DNA from: an uncultured delta proteobacterium
Lineage (GTDB): Bacteria > Desulfobacterota > Binatia > Binatales > Binataceae
Assembly: GCA_963842085.1 (NCBI GenBank)
Contig: CAWJET010000002.1
Coordinates: 1,184,001 to 1,248,000, forward strand
Length of the DNA stretch: 64,000 bases
Direction: 5' to 3'
The position numbers and the translations under genes are program-made. Under the pieces are notes generated by a model, which was given only the letters and a program-made list of their open reading frames with translations, did not search any database and had not been told where the DNA came from. Positions 29,820-43,284 of the stretch are shown piece by piece. The stretch's first letter is position 1, and every line of letters begins with the position of its first letter.

Positions 29820-29896
29820 CAGTGAATTGATGCTCGGTGTTCTTTCGGTATTTTGATTTCGTTTTTTTTCCGCAACTCGCGACGGGAGGAATTTCG

Positions 29897-30925
<1,029 letters not shown>

Positions 30926-36040: not shown

Positions 36041-36160
36041 CTACTTTTTCTGTTCCATCGGAATGCCGCAGCACTTGAGCTGTCCGGAGCCGCCCTTGGT
36101 GACGATAACCTGCGATTTGCAGTTGCTGCAGATGTAAACTTTGCCGAGCTGATTTGCCAT
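36041..36160 (-). CDS. Desulforedoxin-like small metal-binding protein (39 aa, absent from the ORF track)
   Basis: Hand translation MANQLGKVYICSNCKSQVIVTKGGSGQLKCCGIPMEQKK; CxxC-x15-CC; AGGA upstream; paralog at 40918-41061. Confidence 0.85.
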   Translation of the reverse strand: MANQLGKVYICSNCKSQVIVTKGGSGQLKCCGIPMEQKK

Positions 36161-36214
36161 TCGTGGATCCTGATCCTTTCGGACGATTTGCCGCTTAAAA
36201 TTTGCGCCGAAAAT

Positions 36215-37003
36215 TCACGCGCCCCTGAACAGCGGTTTGCGCTTCTCGAGAAAAGCGCGCACGCCTTCGGCGCGGTCGGAAGTCGTTTGTAGCAGGGCGT
36301 ACAGATCCTCCTCAAGCCTGATGCCCTGCTCCAAGGTCATGTCGTAGCCCTTGAGCACGGCGTCCTTGACCAGCCGCGCGGCCAGCGGAGCGCGGCTCAG
36401 GATGGCTTGAGCGACGCGGCCGCCGGTGGCGGCGAGCTCGGCTGGGCTGTCGGCGAGATACGTGACCAGGCCCATGCGCATCGCGTCGCCCGCTTCCAGA
36501 GCCGTCCCGGTCAGCATCAGGCGGAGCGCGTTGCCGGCACCGACGAGGCGCGGGAGGCGCTGGGTTGCGCCGAAATGGGGCATTGCGCCGCGCTTCATTT
36601 GCGTGATGGCAAATCGAGCGGACGAAAGCGCGACCCGAATGTCGGCAGCCATCGCGAGTTCGAGACCTCCATCGAAGGCGTCACCGTTGAGGATGGCGAC
36701 CGTGGGCTTGGAAAGCACGGCGAGCGATTCGACCAGGCGCGGATCGACGGCGGCGTCGAAGCCGAGGCAGAACGCGGAGCCGGCGCCGGTGAGCGCGAGC
36801 ATCCGGGCGGCGTCGTCGTCCTCGACGTGCTCGAACAGCTCGAGCAGGCGGACGGCCATCGCGGGCGTGAGGATGGCGCGCAGGCTGGGAAATCGAAGCG
36901 TCGCGCTGACGCATCCGCCGGCAAAGGCAACGTCGATCGCGCCGGCGGGCGCTTGGCGCGCGGCGCGCCGCGGCCGGGATTTTTTGACGGGGCGCGGCGT
37001 CAG
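36215..37003 (-). CDS. Enoyl-CoA hydratase/isomerase family protein (start uncertain)
   Basis: LTGAGSAFCLG, GGLELAMAADIRVA, GATQRLPRLVG, EGVRAFLEKRKP. Confidence 0.8.
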   Translation of the reverse strand: MTPRPVKKSRPRRAARQAPAGAIDVAFAGGCVSATLRFPSLRAILTPAMAVRLLELFEHVEDDDAARMLALTGAGSAFCLGFDAAVDPRLVESLAVLSKPTVAILNGDAFDGGLELAMAADIRVALSSARFAITQMKRGAMPHFGATQRLPRLVGAGNALRLMLTGTALEAGDAMRMGLVTYLADSPAELAATGGRVAQAILSRAPLAARLVKDAVLKGYDMTLEQGIRLEEDLYALLQTTSDRAEGVRAFLEKRKPLFRGA

Positions 37004-38568
37004 ACGCCTCCGGCGGGAGCGCGCAGATCCTTGCGCAGGATTTTGCCCAGCGGGTTTTTGGGCAGCACGTCGATGAACTCGATGCGCTCGGGACGCTTGA
37101 AGCTGGCCAGGCGCGAGCGGCAGAACTCGGCGAGCTCGGGCTCGGTCACCGAGCTTCCTTCGCGCACAACCACGAAAGCCTTGACGGTCTGCCCCCATTC
37201 GACGGAGGGCACGCCGATGACGGCGCATTCGTCGACGGCGGGATGGCTCATGAGGACGGTTTCGATTTCGGCGGGAGCGATGTTCTCGCCGCCGCGGATA
37301 ATCATGTCGTCCTTGCGGCCGGCGAAGAAGACGTAGCCGTCGTCGTCGAGCCATCCGAGGTCACCGGTCGCGCGCCATCCGTCGGGCAAGCGCGCGTCGT
37401 CGTCGCGGCCGGCGTAGCCTTTCATGATGCGCGGGGTGCGGATGATGATTTCGCCGACCTGGCCGTGCGGGAGGAACTTGCCGTCCTCGTCGCGGACGCG
37501 AATCTCGACGTCGGGCAGCGGTTTGCCGATCGAGTTGAGGCGCTTGAGCTTGAGTTCGACCTGATCGGGCGTGCCTTCGATTCTGTGATCGTCGGGGCCG
37601 AGCACGGTCAGCGACGAGGTTGTTTCGGTCTGGCCGTAGGCGTTCACGAAGCCGACTTTCTTCGGGAACACTTCGATCGCGCGGCGAATCACCTGCACCG
37701 GCATCGCGGCGCCGCCGTAGGCGAGGTTGGTCAGGCTGGAGAGATCGGTTTTGGCGAATGAGGGTTCGTCCATGATCTGCTTCATCATCGTGGGGACGAC
37801 GAGCGCATTCGTGACGCGCTCGCGCTGGACGAGGTCGAGCCACCCCTTCGCTTCGAACTGCGGCATCACGACGATCTTGCGGCCGGTCCAGATGTTGCTC
37901 ATGTACGCCATGGTTCCGGCGATGTGGTAAAACGGCACGCACACCAGCGCGACGCCGCGGTCGGTGCCGTCGGCCATCTCGATAGTGGCGGTCACGTAGG
38001 CGGTGAAGTCGCGAAAGCGCAACTGCACGCCCTTGGGCAGCGAGGTGGTGCCGCTGGTGTACATGAGGATCGAAACGTCCTCATCTTCGACCTCAGCTTC
38101 GGATTCATCGGGGTCGGCCCTGGCTACGAGATCGGCGAGACGCGGCAATCCGCGCGCGCCTTTGCCGAGCGCGACGATTTTGTTCGCGCTTAGCCGCGAC
38201 TGAATTCTGTTGATCAATTCGACATAACGATCGCCGACGAGCAATGCTTTCGCCTGCGCGGTGTTGACCATGTATTCGAGCTCGGCATCCTTGGCGCGAT
38301 AGTTGAGCGGCAGGAAGGTGAGTCCGGCCTTGGCGGCGGCGTAGTAACACTCGATGTAGAGATCGGAGTTGGTGTCGAGCACGGCGATGACGTCGCCATG
38401 CACCAAGCCAAACTGTTTGAAGACCGCGCACAGGCGCGAGATCTGGTCGTTCAGATCCGCATAGGTCAGGCGTCGCGGGCCGAAGACCAGGATTTCCTGG
38501 TCGGGCACGATCGACGATGGGATCGTGACGAAGTTAACCGTGTTCACAGCGGACGAATCCTCCACCAT
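37000..38568 (-). CDS. AMP-dependent acyl-CoA synthetase (ANL superfamily)
   Basis: YTSGTTSLPKG, AYGQTE, TGDLG, GRKDDMIIRGGENI, LPKNPLGKILR. Confidence 0.92.
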   Translation of the reverse strand: MVEDSSAVNTVNFVTIPSSIVPDQEILVFGPRRLTYADLNDQISRLCAVFKQFGLVHGDVIAVLDTNSDLYIECYYAAAKAGLTFLPLNYRAKDAELEYMVNTAQAKALLVGDRYVELINRIQSRLSANKIVALGKGARGLPRLADLVARADPDESEAEVEDEDVSILMYTSGTTSLPKGVQLRFRDFTAYVTATIEMADGTDRGVALVCVPFYHIAGTMAYMSNIWTGRKIVVMPQFEAKGWLDLVQRERVTNALVVPTMMKQIMDEPSFAKTDLSSLTNLAYGGAAMPVQVIRRAIEVFPKKVGFVNAYGQTETTSSLTVLGPDDHRIEGTPDQVELKLKRLNSIGKPLPDVEIRVRDEDGKFLPHGQVGEIIIRTPRIMKGYAGRDDDARLPDGWRATGDLGWLDDDGYVFFAGRKDDMIIRGGENIAPAEIETVLMSHPAVDECAVIGVPSVEWGQTVKAFVVVREGSSVTEPELAEFCRSRLASFKRPERIEFIDVLPKNPLGKILRKDLRAPAGGV

Positions 38569-38574
38569 AGCAAA

Positions 38575-39306
38575 TCAGATTTTGGCGAGCCGCTTCCAGA
38601 GCCGGCGTTCGAGTTCGAGTCCCTGTCGTAGCGGCATATCGAGGCCTCCCCAGACCGCCAGCTTTAGCATCGCGGCCTGCTCGCCGGTGACACGGCCAAA
38701 GGCGCGGGCGAGCGCGAGCGCGCGACCGTCCAAGTCCGCCAAGGGCACAACTTCGGCGACCAAACCTATAAGTAACGCGTCTTGGGCGTCAATCCAACGG
38801 CCGGTGAGGCAAAGGTCCAGCGCCCGGCCGAGGCCGAGGCGGCGCGCGGCGGTTTGCGTGCCGGCGACGCCGGGAATCATGCCGGCGCCGGTCTCGGGCA
38901 GGGACAGGCGCGTGTCGGCGGCGGCGATCGCGAGGTCGCAAAGAAGGGCCATCTCGAGACCGCCGCCGACGGTGTAGCCGTGGATGGCCGCGATGGTCGG
39001 GATGGGCAGCGCGCGGAGCATCCCCCACACGTCGCGGCGAAAGCGGACCCATCGCGCGACAATCGGCGACGGCGCCATCCCGAATTCGGCGAGGTCGCCG
39101 CCGGTTGAGAAAGCCTGGCCGGCGCCCCGCAGGACCATCGCGCGAACCTCGCGATCGTCGTGGATCGCAGCGAGGATCTGAAACAGATCGTCGCGCATCG
39201 CCATGTTGTAGGCGTTGAATTGCGCGGGGCGATTGAGCGTAACCCACGCGACCGGACCGCGCTTGGCGTAGAGAACCGCGCTCGAACCGTTCGTTTTCGA
39301 CGGCAT
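38575..39306 (-). CDS. Enoyl-CoA hydratase/isomerase family protein
   Basis: TLNRP..NA, AFSTGGDL, GGGLEMALLCD, LPETGAGMIPG. Confidence 0.9.
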   Translation of the reverse strand: MPSKTNGSSAVLYAKRGPVAWVTLNRPAQFNAYNMAMRDDLFQILAAIHDDREVRAMVLRGAGQAFSTGGDLAEFGMAPSPIVARWVRFRRDVWGMLRALPIPTIAAIHGYTVGGGLEMALLCDLAIAAADTRLSLPETGAGMIPGVAGTQTAARRLGLGRALDLCLTGRWIDAQDALLIGLVAEVVPLADLDGRALALARAFGRVTGEQAAMLKLAVWGGLDMPLRQGLELERRLWKRLAKI

Positions 39307-40865
39307 CAGGTGGAGCGCAGGTCGGCGCTGTCGCTGCTGGCGATGGCGGGACGGCCGCGCTCGTAAACCACGCGGCCGCCGACGATTGTGAGATCGACGG
39401 TGAGGTTCATCAATTCGGCGGGCGTGAGCGCGAACGGGTCGCGCGGCATCACGATAAGATCGGCCAGACGGTCGGGCTCGACGGCGCCGGCGTTGAGGCG
39501 GGCAAGGCGCGCGGCGTCGGAGGTGAAGAGCGCGAAGGCGTCCTGCACGGGGAGCGCTTCGGCGGGCGCGAGTTCAACGCCGTCGATAGTAGCGCGGGAT
39601 ACGGCGGCCACAATCGCGGCGAGCGGCCTGGCAGGTGTGACGGGAGCGTCGGTAGCGCCGACCAGGTGAACATTGGCGTCCTTGAGACTGCGCGCGCGGT
39701 AGAGATGAGCGATGAGGCCGGGCTCGGCGGCGTACTTGGGCCCGCGAAAATAGATGAAGCCGGGGTTGGTGACGACCCACACACCGAGCGCCACGAGCCG
39801 GTCGATGTAGTTGGGCGTGATGAGACCGCCGTGCTCGATGCGAAACCGCGGCATCTCGTGCGCGCCGGCGAATCGCGACTTGGCGGATTCGATCGCGGCG
39901 ACGGCCTCTTCCAATTCTTCGAGTTCGGTCACGTGAAAGGCGCAATCGAGTCCCAGGTCGAGCGCGCGGAGGACAGGGCGAGAGAGTCCGGCCGCGTCGT
40001 ACTGGTAGCCGGGCATGAACTTGGCGGCGGCCAGACTGATTCCGGCGGCGCGGGCAAGCTGCTCGCATCGATCGGCGTTGTCGAGATGCTGACCGCCGAT
40101 CATCACGCCGACGCGCTGGCAAATCGCGCCCGAACCCGCGAGCCTGGCCAGCTGTTCGACCTCGACCGGTCCGTTGCGCGCGGTGGCGTCGGTGAACGTC
40201 GTGACTCCGGCGGCGGCCAGTTCGCGGCTCATGATGCGCGCGCGTGATTCCGCTTCCGCGGCGGTCACCAGCGGGAGATGATCCGACAGCCACGTTTCCA
40301 TCCCGACGACGAGGCCGGTGAGCTTGCCGGCGGCGTCGCGAATCATGTTGGCGCCGGGGGGAGGAGTGAAGTCGGGAGCCTCGAGGCCCAGCAGCGCGAT
40401 CGCGCGCGAATTGAGCCAGGTCGCGTGCAGCGTCTGATGGCGCAGGCGGATCGGATTCTTGGGCAGCGAGTGATCGAGCTCGGCGCGCGTGGGCCCGCGC
40501 TTTTCGAGCATGAGCGCTTCATCGCATCCGAAGGCGCGCAGCCAGTTACCGGGCGGCGTCTTGCCGGCGGCAAGCCGCAGGTCGCCGAGCAGATCGCCGA
40601 CAGTGCGGCATCGCTGGACGGAGATCCCGGTGGCAGCCGCAGCAGCCTCGCGGAAATGGAGGTGCGAATCGATGAAGCCGGGCGCGAGGGTGCGTCCCGC
40701 GAGCTTGATCAGATGAGTTCGCGGACCGACCAGCGGTTTCAGCTGCGCGAAGGGTCCGTGCGCGGCGATCAACCCGCGCGAGATGGCAACCGAGTCGCTG
40801 CCGGGATGGCCGAGAACGAGACCCTCGTGCAGAACCAGGTCGGCTTTCCCGGGCGCAGCTTCCAT
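39306..40865 (-). CDS. Amidohydrolase family 3 (YtcJ-like) metallohydrolase
   Basis: PGFIDSHLH, HATWLNSRA, RIEHG, TDAPV, GAVEPDRLADL. Confidence 0.88.
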   Translation of the reverse strand: MEAAPGKADLVLHEGLVLGHPGSDSVAISRGLIAAHGPFAQLKPLVGPRTHLIKLAGRTLAPGFIDSHLHFREAAAAATGISVQRCRTVGDLLGDLRLAAGKTPPGNWLRAFGCDEALMLEKRGPTRAELDHSLPKNPIRLRHQTLHATWLNSRAIALLGLEAPDFTPPPGANMIRDAAGKLTGLVVGMETWLSDHLPLVTAAEAESRARIMSRELAAAGVTTFTDATARNGPVEVEQLARLAGSGAICQRVGVMIGGQHLDNADRCEQLARAAGISLAAAKFMPGYQYDAAGLSRPVLRALDLGLDCAFHVTELEELEEAVAAIESAKSRFAGAHEMPRFRIEHGGLITPNYIDRLVALGVWVVTNPGFIYFRGPKYAAEPGLIAHLYRARSLKDANVHLVGATDAPVTPARPLAAIVAAVSRATIDGVELAPAEALPVQDAFALFTSDAARLARLNAGAVEPDRLADLIVMPRDPFALTPAELMNLTVDLTIVGGRVVYERGRPAIASSDSADLRST

Positions 40866-40917
40866 TTTGGAACGTGTGCCTTCGCCGCGCGACCGAGGGC
40901 CGCGGCGTTCGGGGATC

Positions 40918-41061
40918 CTAGTCGGAACTTGGAAGCGGTTTGGCTTCCTTGATCTTCATCGCCTGGTCGCAACATTCGAGGCCGCCGTCCCCCGCCTTGT
41001 TGCAGAGCACCTCGGTGCCGCACTTTTCGCACATGTAACGCTTACCGAGCACGTTAGCCAT
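40918..41061 (-). CDS. Desulforedoxin-like small metal-binding protein (47 aa)
   Basis: MANVLGKRYMCEKCGTEVLCNKAGDGGLECCDQAMKIKEAKPLPSSD; CxxC-x15-CC; strong TAAGGAG RBS before ATG 41061. Confidence 0.88.
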   Translation of the reverse strand: MANVLGKRYMCEKCGTEVLCNKAGDGGLECCDQAMKIKEAKPLPSSD

Positions 41062-41128: not shown

Positions 41129-42112
41129 TCAATTCTGCGCGAACGGCAAATCAACCACGGTCGCGGCGCCGTCCTCGCCGACTTTCAGCTCCATCCCGGG
41201 CGTCCATGCGCTGTGATGCAAAATCGCAAGCCCGATCGCGCCCCGGCGCGGCGAGCGCACCGCGCTCGTCACACGGCCGACTTCCTTGCCGGCCAGAGTA
41301 AGCACCGCGCCGACGTACGGCGCGTCCGCAGTACTGAACTTAAGTCCGAACATCCGTCTTTTCAAACCGCCGCGCGCGGTCGCCCGCTCGATCGTCTCCT
41401 GCCCCAGGTAGCATCCCTTGTTGAACGAGATCGCGCCATTGAGGCGCGCCTCGAGCGCGATCGTCTTGTCAGCGGTATCGACGCCGACGAGGGCGACGCC
41501 GTTTTCGACGCGAATGGTTTCGAGCACTGAAGGATCGACGCGGCTTGAACCCGGGGTCTTCGCCAGAATTGAGGCGATCGTTGCGTCGATCGAATCGCGC
41601 GAAGCGATCACTGATGCGGCCGGTCCGCCGTAACGAGGCAGGTTGCCGACGAGCGAGCCCCCGGCCTCGACGCAGCTCCACGGGGCAAGCGAACTGACGC
41701 CTGTCGCGTCCAGCGCGGCGGGTCCCTCGACATCGAGCACGGCGAGGTCAGCGGCATCTTCGAATTCGACATCGTCGGCGACCAGCAATCGCTCGAGATG
41801 CGCGCGCGTGCGCGTCCATGCGTTGGCGTCGATGTCGAGGATGAGCGCGCCGGCGGTCACCCAGATGAAGGCGTCGGCAATCACGTGCGCGTGCTCGGTC
41901 AGAAACAGCGCGGGCAGGATGGCGCCGGGGCGCGCGCCCTTTACGTCGGCGGTACACATCCCGTGGAAGAACGAGGCGCGATCGTCGCCGATCACGCGCA
42001 CAACGATTCGAGCCTCGAGGACGACGACGCCCGCGGCGTGCATGACCGCATCGTAGCCGGAGGAATCGAGCGCGAGCGCGGCCGGACGCTCGGATGTTTC
42101 GAGATGCGCCAC
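41129..42112 (-). CDS. ygfZ: Folate-binding protein YgfZ / GcvT-like
   Basis: KGCYLGQE signature; GDDRASFFHG, VGRVTS. Confidence 0.88.
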   Translation of the reverse strand: MAHLETSERPAALALDSSGYDAVMHAAGVVVLEARIVVRVIGDDRASFFHGMCTADVKGARPGAILPALFLTEHAHVIADAFIWVTAGALILDIDANAWTRTRAHLERLLVADDVEFEDAADLAVLDVEGPAALDATGVSSLAPWSCVEAGGSLVGNLPRYGGPAASVIASRDSIDATIASILAKTPGSSRVDPSVLETIRVENGVALVGVDTADKTIALEARLNGAISFNKGCYLGQETIERATARGGLKRRMFGLKFSTADAPYVGAVLTLAGKEVGRVTSAVRSPRRGAIGLAILHHSAWTPGMELKVGEDGAATVVDLPFAQN

Positions 42113-42282: not shown

Positions 42283-43284
42283 ATGCTTGCCAGGTTGACA
42301 AGACTTGGGATCGCTTGCGACGCGCCGCCCGCGCAATTGCGGTCAGCCCGCGAGCATTTCGAGCAGCATAACTATCTGCGGTTGCCGGGCTTCGTCGAAT
42401 CTCGCCTGCTCCGGTTGATTCAGCGTCACCTGCGCAGCGCCGGGTTCGAGGAAAGAACCCATAGCGTCGGACGCGAGCTCACGCTTTCGGACAGACCGCT
42501 GGCCAATGTCTTTCACGTCCTGATGAACGATCCAAAGCTGTTCCGTCTGATTCGGCAGGTCACCGGATGCGGGCGCATCGGATGCTTCACGGGCCGGCTC
42601 TACCAGATGGTCGCGCGCCAGGGACAGGACTTCCACTGGCACAATGATCTGCTGGACGATCGGAAGGTCGCGATCTCGGTCAACTTGAGTGACGCGCCGT
42701 ATCGTGGCGGTACTCTGCAGATTCGCGACACCTCCAGCCGCGCGCGCGAGGTAGTTCCGAACCTTGGTTTCGGCGACGCGATCATTTTCCGCGTTGCCGG
42801 GCATCTCGTGCACCGCGTCACTCCGGTCACGGGAAAGTTTCCGAAGACCGCTCTTACCGGATGGTTCCGCGCCCGACCCAGGCACACGTCAGTGCATCAG
42901 GATTTGATCGCCCGGTCCGAAGCTGCGATCGCCAGCCAAGCCATCCGCCGGCAGCGGAGTCTCGCGATGCCCTCGCGGGACGACGTCGCGAAGATCCCAC
43001 CTGATGTCGTATCGCAAAGCTCGGGGCGCGAGACCTTCGTGGCCAGCATCGGCAGGTCGATGTGCTATGGCTTGAATGAGACCGGCGTTCGGATTTGGCA
43101 GCTTATGGCCCAGGGCCACGCTATGCGCTCGATCTCGGCCGCCCTCGCGCGCGAATACGAAGCCCCACGCCGGGAAGTCGAACGCGACGTTTTGGCACTG
43201 GCCTATCAGCTCGCGCAGCGGGACCTGGTCAAGGTAGTTCGCGCCACCAACTCGCGACGCGTCCGCGAAGCCGTCATGGCGTAG
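42283..43284 (+). CDS. 2OG-Fe(II) oxygenase fused to C-terminal PqqD/RiPP recognition element
   Basis: WHND (HxD), GGTLQ, GDAIIF, HRVTPV, TGWF; C-terminal YGLNETGVRIWQLM...LAREYEAPRREVERDVLALAYQLAQRDLV. Confidence 0.82.
   Translation: MLARLTRLGIACDAPPAQLRSAREHFEQHNYLRLPGFVESRLLRLIQRHLRSAGFEERTHSVGRELTLSDRPLANVFHVLMNDPKLFRLIRQVTGCGRIGCFTGRLYQMVARQGQDFHWHNDLLDDRKVAISVNLSDAPYRGGTLQIRDTSSRAREVVPNLGFGDAIIFRVAGHLVHRVTPVTGKFPKTALTGWFRARPRHTSVHQDLIARSEAAIASQAIRRQRSLAMPSRDDVAKIPPDVVSQSSGRETFVASIGRSMCYGLNETGVRIWQLMAQGHAMRSISAALAREYEAPRREVERDVLALAYQLAQRDLVKVVRATNSRRVREAVMA

Follow-up and report, generated by a model that had tools for sequence, protein, structure and literature searches.

Tailed, paired desulforedoxin-fold mini-proteins encoded with one clade of acyl-CoA synthetases in Binataceae and distant bacteria

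Why should an operon for an acyl-coenzyme A (CoA) synthetase, two crotonases and a hydrolase be bracketed by genes for two tiny desulforedoxin-like proteins? The question is raised by positions 36041-41061 of a 64,000-nucleotide (nt) stretch of Candidatus Binataceae DNA (contig CAWJET010000002.1 of assembly GCA_963842085.1; hereafter the window). Here, six minus-strand genes encode, in order of transcription, the mini-protein Dx1, an Amidohydro_3 family protein (the amidohydrolase), the crotonase ECH1, an ANL-superfamily acyl-CoA synthetase (the ligase), the crotonase-fold protein ECH2 and the mini-protein Dx2. An original prediction made from the sequence alone had described this layout, which was borne out for all six genes in strand and position and agrees with their Pfam matches (Table 1), and had offered a LysW-like carrier or a redox partner as roles for the small proteins. 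As judged by sequence comparison, Dx1 and Dx2 represent a large and widespread family of tailed, paired mini-proteins that carries no annotation and, inside CoA-ester catabolic clusters, has been inherited together with one clade of ligases.

Both mini-proteins contain the metal-binding motif CxxC-x15-CC and share the start MAN.LGK.Y.C, and Shine-Dalgarno-like sequences precede both (AAGGAG, ending 7 nt before the ATG of Dx1, and AGGA, 7 nt before that of Dx2), confirming what the original prediction had read from the letters. The C-terminal tail of Dx1, KEAKPLPSSD, is near-invariant among 29 orthologs, and a fifth conserved Cys is found at position 20. Dx2 ends in ...EQKK, and all four of its Cys residues are invariant in 20 aligned orthologs. 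Codon differences among 79 distinct Dx1 sequences are distributed over codon positions 1, 2 and 3 as 347, 356 and 1243, with 1034 synonymous and 416 non-synonymous changed codons; the corresponding values for 60 Dx2 sequences are 239, 122 and 595, with 478 synonymous and 284 non-synonymous changes. This pattern among orthologs indicates that both mini-genes are under protein-level selection and, at the level of sequence, Dx1 and Dx2 are real, conserved genes.

The relationship to desulforedoxin is evident in sequence and predicted fold. Desulforedoxin of Desulfovibrio gigas (1DXG/1CFW) and the desulfoferrodoxin N-domain (PF06397) have the same CxxC-x15-CC motif, a core of about 36 residues and the same fold. 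The AlphaFold2 model of Dx1 (predicted local distance difference test, pLDDT, of 79) shows a desulforedoxin fold across residues 1-36 and superposes on 1dxg_A with a TM-score of 0.90 by target, a root-mean-square deviation of 0.9 Å over 36 columns and a probability of 1.00; the Foldseek E-value is merely 0.024 because the chain is so short. The sequence profile matches 1cfw at an E-value of 0.0013, and sequence profiles revealed no relative in the PDB beyond desulforedoxin and desulfoferrodoxin. Within the 4.93-Mb genome, Dx1 and Dx2 are the only matches to PF06397, and no long frame is among them; therefore, PF06397 matches reveal no desulfoferrodoxin-type (2Fe) superoxide reductase in this genome. 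Pfam matches also confirmed the earlier statement that the operon contains neither a superoxide reductase partner nor any other oxidoreductase.

Outside the Binataceae, the two mini-proteins occur together more directly. From 401 genomes of the same GTDB phylum, at least 21 of which had a match reaching the last residue of Dx1, 18 places were fetched (the far loci), and in 10 of these the genes for Dx2 and Dx1 are neighbors. Moreover, L093, L094 and L095 encode a single chain in which a Dx2-like half is joined by a linker to a Dx1-like half that lacks its four ligand Cys but retains LGKRY and ...KEAKPLPSSD. This fused form, with about 100 residues, is also found in Actinomycetota, sphingomonads and many metagenome contigs, directly beside an ANL ligase. 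As their genes lie in tandem in some families and are fused in many genomes, Dx1 and Dx2 are, as far as can be judged from sequence, very probably two halves of one unit. The heterodimer envisaged by the original prediction is accordingly very probable; a two-chain unit, as in the desulforedoxin homodimer, is likely. Unlike desulforedoxin, this unit would combine members of two distinct orthologous groups, either as a heterodimer or fused in a single chain.

To what extent the metal site defines the family was apparent from a profile search over 1.84 billion representative sequences, which yielded 1275 proteins at E ≤ 0.001 and 467 at E ≤ 1e-10. Among the best 150 of the 1275, 132 end in S-x-D or x-S-D (96 SSD, 18 SAD, 11 ASD). 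These 132 tail-bearing representatives keep G6 in 132, K7 in 126, R8 in 131 and Y9 in 121 cases, while all four ligand Cys of the Dx1 half are present in just 51 and none in 42. A length of at least 80 residues was found for 94 of the best 146 representatives (about 60%), most of which are Dx2-Dx1 fusions. Going by these sequences, it is a GKRY patch near the N-terminus and a free S-S-D at the C-terminus that define the family, not the metal site, and the tail that the original prediction had singled out is kept more strictly than the metal ligands. Dx1 has both the LGKRY patch and the ...PSSD end, and the second, tail-less half is encoded by Dx2 in the same operon. The invariant GKRY patch, the -SSD tail and the fifth Cys of the Dx1 half are further features that set the unit apart from desulforedoxin, as is the loss of metal ligands, which affects about one representative in three. 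No Pfam or NCBIfam model matched the Cys-less fused relatives, which are named hypothetical where sources name them.

A fused member was modeled as one compact six-strand domain (mean pLDDT 93.9, predicted template modeling score 0.84). Its tail is ordered, with a pLDDT of 93 for residues 91-100 and 82 for residues 101-104, as compared to 63 for the tail of Dx1 modeled alone. A fold search of the PDB with this model gave no match at E ≤ 0.001, and the fused sequence profile gave nothing relevant among PDB sequences. Two apparent fusions of Dx1 to the amidohydrolase (P0121 and P0130) look like frameshift artefacts, because each cluster consists of one sequence with a garbled C-terminus; apart from these, no C-terminal fusion of the tail-bearing half to another domain was seen.

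Several variants of the family were observed in addition. L095 (G143:C8, 9958-10338, minus strand) encodes a fused form that lacks all eight ligand Cys and retains the full ...ELKEAKPLPSSD tail; no ligase or crotonase match was found within 20 kb, and the gene is convergent with one for a sulfotransferase-domain protein (PF13469, PF00685). In nine representatives (P0162, P0195, P0206, P0210, P0211, P0216, P0231, P0258 and P0261), a domain of about 60 residues and unknown type replaces the Dx2 half ahead of a tailed Dx1. L088 (G070:C2, 1737-4327) contains two Dx2 copies in the order ligase, Dx2, inverted CoA-transferase A/B pair, second Dx2, Dx1, NMO-family gene. Furthermore, a third, degenerate Dx1-like copy of 49 residues, ending in ...LPSSD, was found in a genome of the same genus (L096, G204:C10, 9992-10141, minus strand); it has an altered N-terminus and lies beside ATP-binding cassette (ABC) transporter-like genes, away from any ligase or crotonase, and may represent a duplicate in decay or a paralog that serves another partner.

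The gene neighbor that most often accompanies the mini-protein is the ligase. A metagenome scan for the fused form, based on a 7-row alignment, gave 80 loci, 73 of them with at least 200 nt of downstream sequence; in 60 of the 73, the next 150 nt downstream include the start of an ANL ligase gene on the same strand, in most cases only a few bases away. Among plasmids, a tblastn search recovered 19 records with the fused form (Rhodococcus 12, Streptomyces 3, Sphingobium 2, Mycobacterium 1, Sphingomonas 1). Ten annotated plasmid loci from these five genera all keep GKRY and ...PLP(S/A)SD, and in 9 of them a gene annotated as an adenylate-forming or fatty-acid-CoA ligase is directly adjacent on either side. 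Overall, the ligase is the commonest direct neighbor of the mini-protein. In a ligase tree, 23 Dx-adjacent ligases, including that of the window, are split by a 100/100 branch from 4 non-adjacent paralogs of the same loci, and they divide into a group next to split Dx genes (11 rows, support 80/61) and a group next to fused ones (12 rows, support 100/99).

The association also persists where gene order has changed. The gene order ECH2, ECH1, ligase, Dx2, Dx1 is found in L083-L086, L089, L090, L097 and L098, which belong to other families, and L088, L099 and L100 represent partial or variant forms of this tandem arrangement. In 14 of the 18 far loci, the cluster includes a ligase of the same type. 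Both crotonases are found with the Dx pair in every tandem-type locus for which the DNA is present, L087 among them, where a CoA-transferase A/B pair takes the usual place of the ligase beside Dx2-Dx1. Thus, the gene order is reshuffled and yet the ligase, the two crotonases and the two mini-genes stay together, which argues for a functional link; the co-occurrence with ANL ligase and crotonase genes that the original prediction had named holds across distant lineages. L095 and L096 have neither a ligase nor a crotonase nearby. An amidohydrolase homolog (28-33% identity) was found within 10 kb in 6 of the 18 far loci and in 5 of the 17 metagenome loci with at least 8 kb of sequence; outside the Binataceae, the amidohydrolase is merely a variable member of the neighborhood. 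Recurrent neighbors in the far loci are genes for an NMO-family flavoprotein, an alpha/beta hydrolase (immediately after Dx1 in 5 loci), family III CoA-transferase pairs, an acyl-CoA dehydrogenase, a MaoC-like protein and an acetyl-CoA hydrolase/transferase. Of the enzymes that recur near the wider family, thiolase, family III CoA-transferases and acyl-CoA dehydrogenases need CoA esters.

Closer to the window, a scan for Dx1 relatives with one genome per species gave at least 558 stretches, the best 80 of which, all Binataceae-like, were counted. The full order Dx1, amidohydrolase, ECH1, ligase, ECH2, Dx2 is present in 61 of these 80; in 16 the contig ends less than 5.2 kb after Dx1, and 3 lack the distal genes despite 8 kb of DNA. 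The amidohydrolase gene directly follows Dx1 in 79 of the 80. Four genomes without the full set (G401-G404) encode ligase, ECH2 and Dx2 elsewhere in the genome, with Dx1 staying next to the amidohydrolase, although the flank of the fourth split locus (L062) comprises only 3.8 kb. As these loci are kin, the conserved order among them could be inherited synteny.

Taken together, we propose, with a probability of roughly 0.5, that the Dx pair is a non-redox accessory partner of one acyl-CoA synthetase clade in a CoA-dependent, beta-oxidation-like pathway. By analogy to MbtH-like proteins, there is about an even chance that the pair binds the ligase physically and affects its activity. MbtH-like proteins (PF03621) are small partners of the adenylation domains of nonribosomal peptide synthetases and have conserved Trp residues. 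As with these, a small protein is encoded beside, and co-inherited with, an ANL-superfamily enzyme, and we favor this analogy for the role only: there is no relation in sequence or fold, the putative partner is a free-standing CoA ligase and not a nonribosomal peptide synthetase, and Pfam gave no PF03621 match in Dx1, Dx2 or ten family representatives. Dx1 and Dx2 would form one small heterodimer of desulforedoxin fold, replaced elsewhere by the single fused chain of about 100 residues. Its working surface would be formed by the invariant GKRY patch and by the free carboxylate of the -S-S-D end, which sits on a Pro-rich stretch, whereas the Cys4 metal site would only stabilize the fold and could be lost. 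The ligase would make the acyl-CoA of a carboxylic acid, ECH1 would hydrate an enoyl-CoA, ECH2 would perform a crotonase reaction other than hydration, and the amidohydrolase would act on a side step. A complex prediction for the ligase with Dx2, Dx1 and two Fe scored 0.69, and the score was the same 0.69 when an unrelated protein replaced the ligase; this prediction counts neither for nor against the proposal.

Several observations weigh against this proposal. In the window itself, neither mini-gene touches the ligase gene, Dx1 abutting the amidohydrolase and Dx2 abutting ECH2, and in G401-G404 Dx1 and the amidohydrolase are separated from the ligase, ECH2 and Dx2. L087 has no ligase match within 20 kb, and tailed fusions without a ligase nearby are found in L095 and on one Rhodococcus gordoniae plasmid, where the fusion lies between an alpha/beta hydrolase and two flavin adenine dinucleotide (FAD) oxidoreductases. 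Adjacency among kin is not independent, each set of 80 loci, from genomes and from metagenomes, consisting of close relatives of its query, and the ligase tree is supportive, not conclusive, because its outgroup is small (four ligases). A redox link is kept open by P0233, in which a 2Fe-2S ferredoxin domain is fused ahead of a Dx2-Dx1 fusion; in addition, fdxA precedes the ligase gene in Rhodococcus DK17, and 9 of 12 tandem-type loci have a gene for an NMO-family flavoprotein within three genes of the module.

The rival that survives best, though we consider it unlikely, is that the Dx pair serves as an adaptor or scaffold for the crotonases, the amidohydrolase or the CoA-transferase, or as a channelling link from the ligase to the next enzyme. 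This would account for the presence of both crotonases with the pair in every tandem-type locus with sufficient DNA, even the ligase-less L087, for the position of Dx1 next to the amidohydrolase (79 of 80) and of Dx2 next to ECH2 in Binataceae, for the persistence of the former pairing in the split genomes, and for the alpha/beta hydrolase gene directly behind Dx1 in five far loci. However, the plasmids of Streptomyces NBC_00564 and Mycobacterium branderi have an adjacent ligase and no crotonase or amidohydrolase annotated within 9 kb, the amidohydrolase accompanies just 5 of the 17 longer metagenome loci, and the commonest direct neighbor overall remains the ligase. A precedent for small accessory proteins of CoA-ester enzymes is provided by the DUF35/Zn-ribbon OB-fold proteins (BbsA, ChsH2-DUF35), which scaffold thiolases and are annotated in the same plasmid clusters; unlike the Dx unit, DUF35 proteins have an OB-fold, a thiolase or aldolase as partner and no conserved C-terminal tail.

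Less probable still is a function of the pair as a rubredoxin-like Fe(Cys)4 electron carrier for an acyl-CoA dehydrogenase, an NMO-type reductase or a P450. The desulforedoxin fold, the full CxxC...CC motif of both window proteins and the four invariant Cys of the Dx2 orthologs would fit such a carrier, as would the recurrence of NMO, acyl-CoA dehydrogenase and ferredoxin genes and a P450 near distant members and the ferredoxin fusion in P0233. However, a free electron carrier is unlikely because the metal ligands are dispensable across the wider family (42 of the 132 tailed representatives lack all four in the Dx1 half), and the redox-partner alternative of the original prediction is weakened by the same loss. 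Furthermore, the window operon encodes no oxidoreductase, no redox gene is a constant neighbor, and the unit never adjoins a superoxide reductase here, unlike what is known of desulforedoxin; its link is to an acyl-CoA ligase. A ferredoxin as regular partner was considered and rejected, as a 4Fe-4S motif was found in 0 of the 80 Binataceae-like loci and in few others.

The tethered carrier of the original prediction, in which the ligase would attach a substrate to the -SSD tail of Dx1, the crotonases would modify it and the amidohydrolase would release it, finds no support and is improbable: the invariant Asp at the free C-terminus, carried by a Pro-rich stretch, the constant vicinity of an adenylate-forming enzyme, a hydrolase gene behind Dx1 (that of the amidohydrolase in Binataceae, of an alpha/beta hydrolase in five far loci) and the lack of C-terminal fusions are as expected of a carrier, but the reading fits poorly because the neighboring enzymes are CoA-dependent and a CoA-transferase pair replaces the ligase in L087, while the motifs and nearest relatives of the ligase are those of free CoA ligases, the tail is modeled as packed and not as a free arm in the fused form, and the amidohydrolase is variable. 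LysW is a small amino-group carrier with an EDWGE-like tail ending in Glu, served by the ATP-grasp enzyme LysX/ArgX and by LysZ, LysY, LysJ and LysK. Dx1 resembles it as a small Cys4 ribbon protein that has an acidic C-terminus and shares its operon with genes for a ligase and a hydrolase. It differs in its ...PSSD tail, which is not of the LysW-type EDWGE kind, in the ANL type of the ligase and in the CoA-ester dependence of the downstream enzymes; moreover, homologs of LysZ, LysY, LysJ and LysK and an ATP-grasp ligase are absent from the operon according to its Pfam matches (Amidohydro_3, two ECH_1, AMP-binding). It is similarly improbable that Dx1, or the fused protein, is a new kind of carrier, in which an ANL ligase would acylate a tail serine or activate the terminal Asp and a neighboring hydrolase would remove the group, and which would use a desulforedoxin fold and neither phosphopantetheine nor an ATP-grasp enzyme.

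Few enzymes of lipid and aromatic catabolism have been studied as well as the ANL acyl-CoA synthetases, and those that are free-standing are taken to act without a partner. An entire clade of them is accompanied here by the gene for a dedicated mini-protein; the clade occurs in Rhodococcus, Mycobacterium, Streptomyces, sphingomonads, Binatia and related bacteria of soil and sediment, where annotation misses the mini-protein or labels it hypothetical. If the mini-protein were an obligate partner, assays and heterologous expression of these ligases in its absence may have misled, and the desulforedoxin fold would gain a second, non-redox use. The cluster concerned is a very common soil catabolic cluster, and cultured Rhodococcus strains make the question directly testable. 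In the titles and opening parts of abstracts, supplementary files excluded, we found no description linking desulforedoxin or a PLPSSD tail with CoA enzymes.

Table 1. Features of the operon in the window and the gene upstream of it, with domain matches.
Feature	Position	Strand	Description
YgfZ/CAF17-like folate-binding protein	41129-42112	minus	PF01571, PF08669; TIGR03317 79.6 bits vs cut-off 49
Dx1	40918-41061	minus	47 aa, tail-bearing half; PF06397 22.4 bits vs cut-off 23
Amidohydro_3 metal-dependent hydrolase	39306-40865	minus	519 aa; PF07969 E 8.9e-63
ECH1 crotonase	38575-39306	minus	PF00378 E 4.9e-48
ANL-superfamily acyl-CoA synthetase	37000-38568	minus	522 aa; PF00501 + PF13193
ECH2 crotonase-fold protein	36215-37005, start uncertain	minus	PF00378 E 9.3e-41
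Dx2	36041-36160	minus	39 aa, tail-less half; PF06397 31.6 bits vs cut-off 23

The genes of the operon are tightly spaced (52 nt, a 1-nt overlap, 6 nt, 54 nt), and a scan for promoters and terminators gave no signal exceeding that of shuffled sequences. The operon of the original prediction stands with its six genes and is corrected in two respects, namely the start of ECH2 and a conserved YgfZ-like gene upstream. The latter directly precedes Dx1 in 77 of the 80 Binataceae-like loci and was found upstream in the far loci L091 and L092 and in none of the remaining 16. Its membership in the system is doubtful, and the adjacency may be plain synteny, because it is confined to Binatia. Divergent from the YgfZ-like gene, 42283-43284 (plus strand) encodes a 333-residue fusion of a 2-oxoglutarate (2OG)-Fe(II) oxygenase (PF13640) and a PqqD-like peptide-binding domain (PF05402), an architecture of peptide-modifying enzymes. 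As a candidate modifier of the Dx1 tail it was rejected and placed outside the Dx system, since relatives are absent from all 98 related loci. On the other side, 5 kb from Dx2, a luciferase-like monooxygenase (PF00296) is encoded at 29837-30925 (plus strand). Related genes (26-29% identity) head fused-type operons in two Binatia genomes (L093, 7819-8892; L094, 11156-12226), and genes for luciferase-like monooxygenases are annotated near the mini-protein on Rhodococcus, Mycobacterium and Streptomyces plasmids, a weak recurrence.

With respect to the enzymes of the operon, the ligase scores 473.5 bits against NCBIfam NF004837 (cut-off 476), and among solved structures FadD13 and a feruloyl-CoA synthetase are nearest to it; by motifs and nearest relatives, it looks like an ordinary CoA ligase. 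The only solved relatives of the amidohydrolase, 3igh and 3icj, are both uncharacterized. ECH1 is probably a true enoyl-CoA hydratase, as both catalytic Glu positions are kept in its alignment, where the motifs ...GLEMA... and ...LPE(T/V)G... are conserved. ECH2 lacks the second catalytic Glu, which is Q in the window and H or Q in aligned orthologs. A resemblance to a steroid C/D-ring set (ligase, CoA-transferase A/B, NMO, crotonase) was also considered and was rejected, matches to the NCBIfam models for FadD3, EchA19 and CasG being far below their cut-offs.

Regarding the start of ECH2, no in-frame ATG, GTG or TTG occurs between 37000 and 36859, and the same holds for six close relatives. 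The best candidate, from the sequence, is a CTG at 37003-37005, which overlaps the ligase stop (CTGA), lies 3 nt behind GGAGG and would give a basic N-terminal extension of about 20 residues; alternatively, another non-canonical start or translational coupling may apply. Finally, the crotonase encoded after the ligase in fused-type clusters is longer, with 306-355 residues (L094, 7405-8325, minus strand; L159, 9840-10907, plus strand; L105, 9908-10849, plus strand). The ECH_1 match is confined to its C-terminal half and covers model positions 5-176 of 251, with 140-180 residues free of any domain match in front, so that this protein may be a permuted or truncated crotonase.

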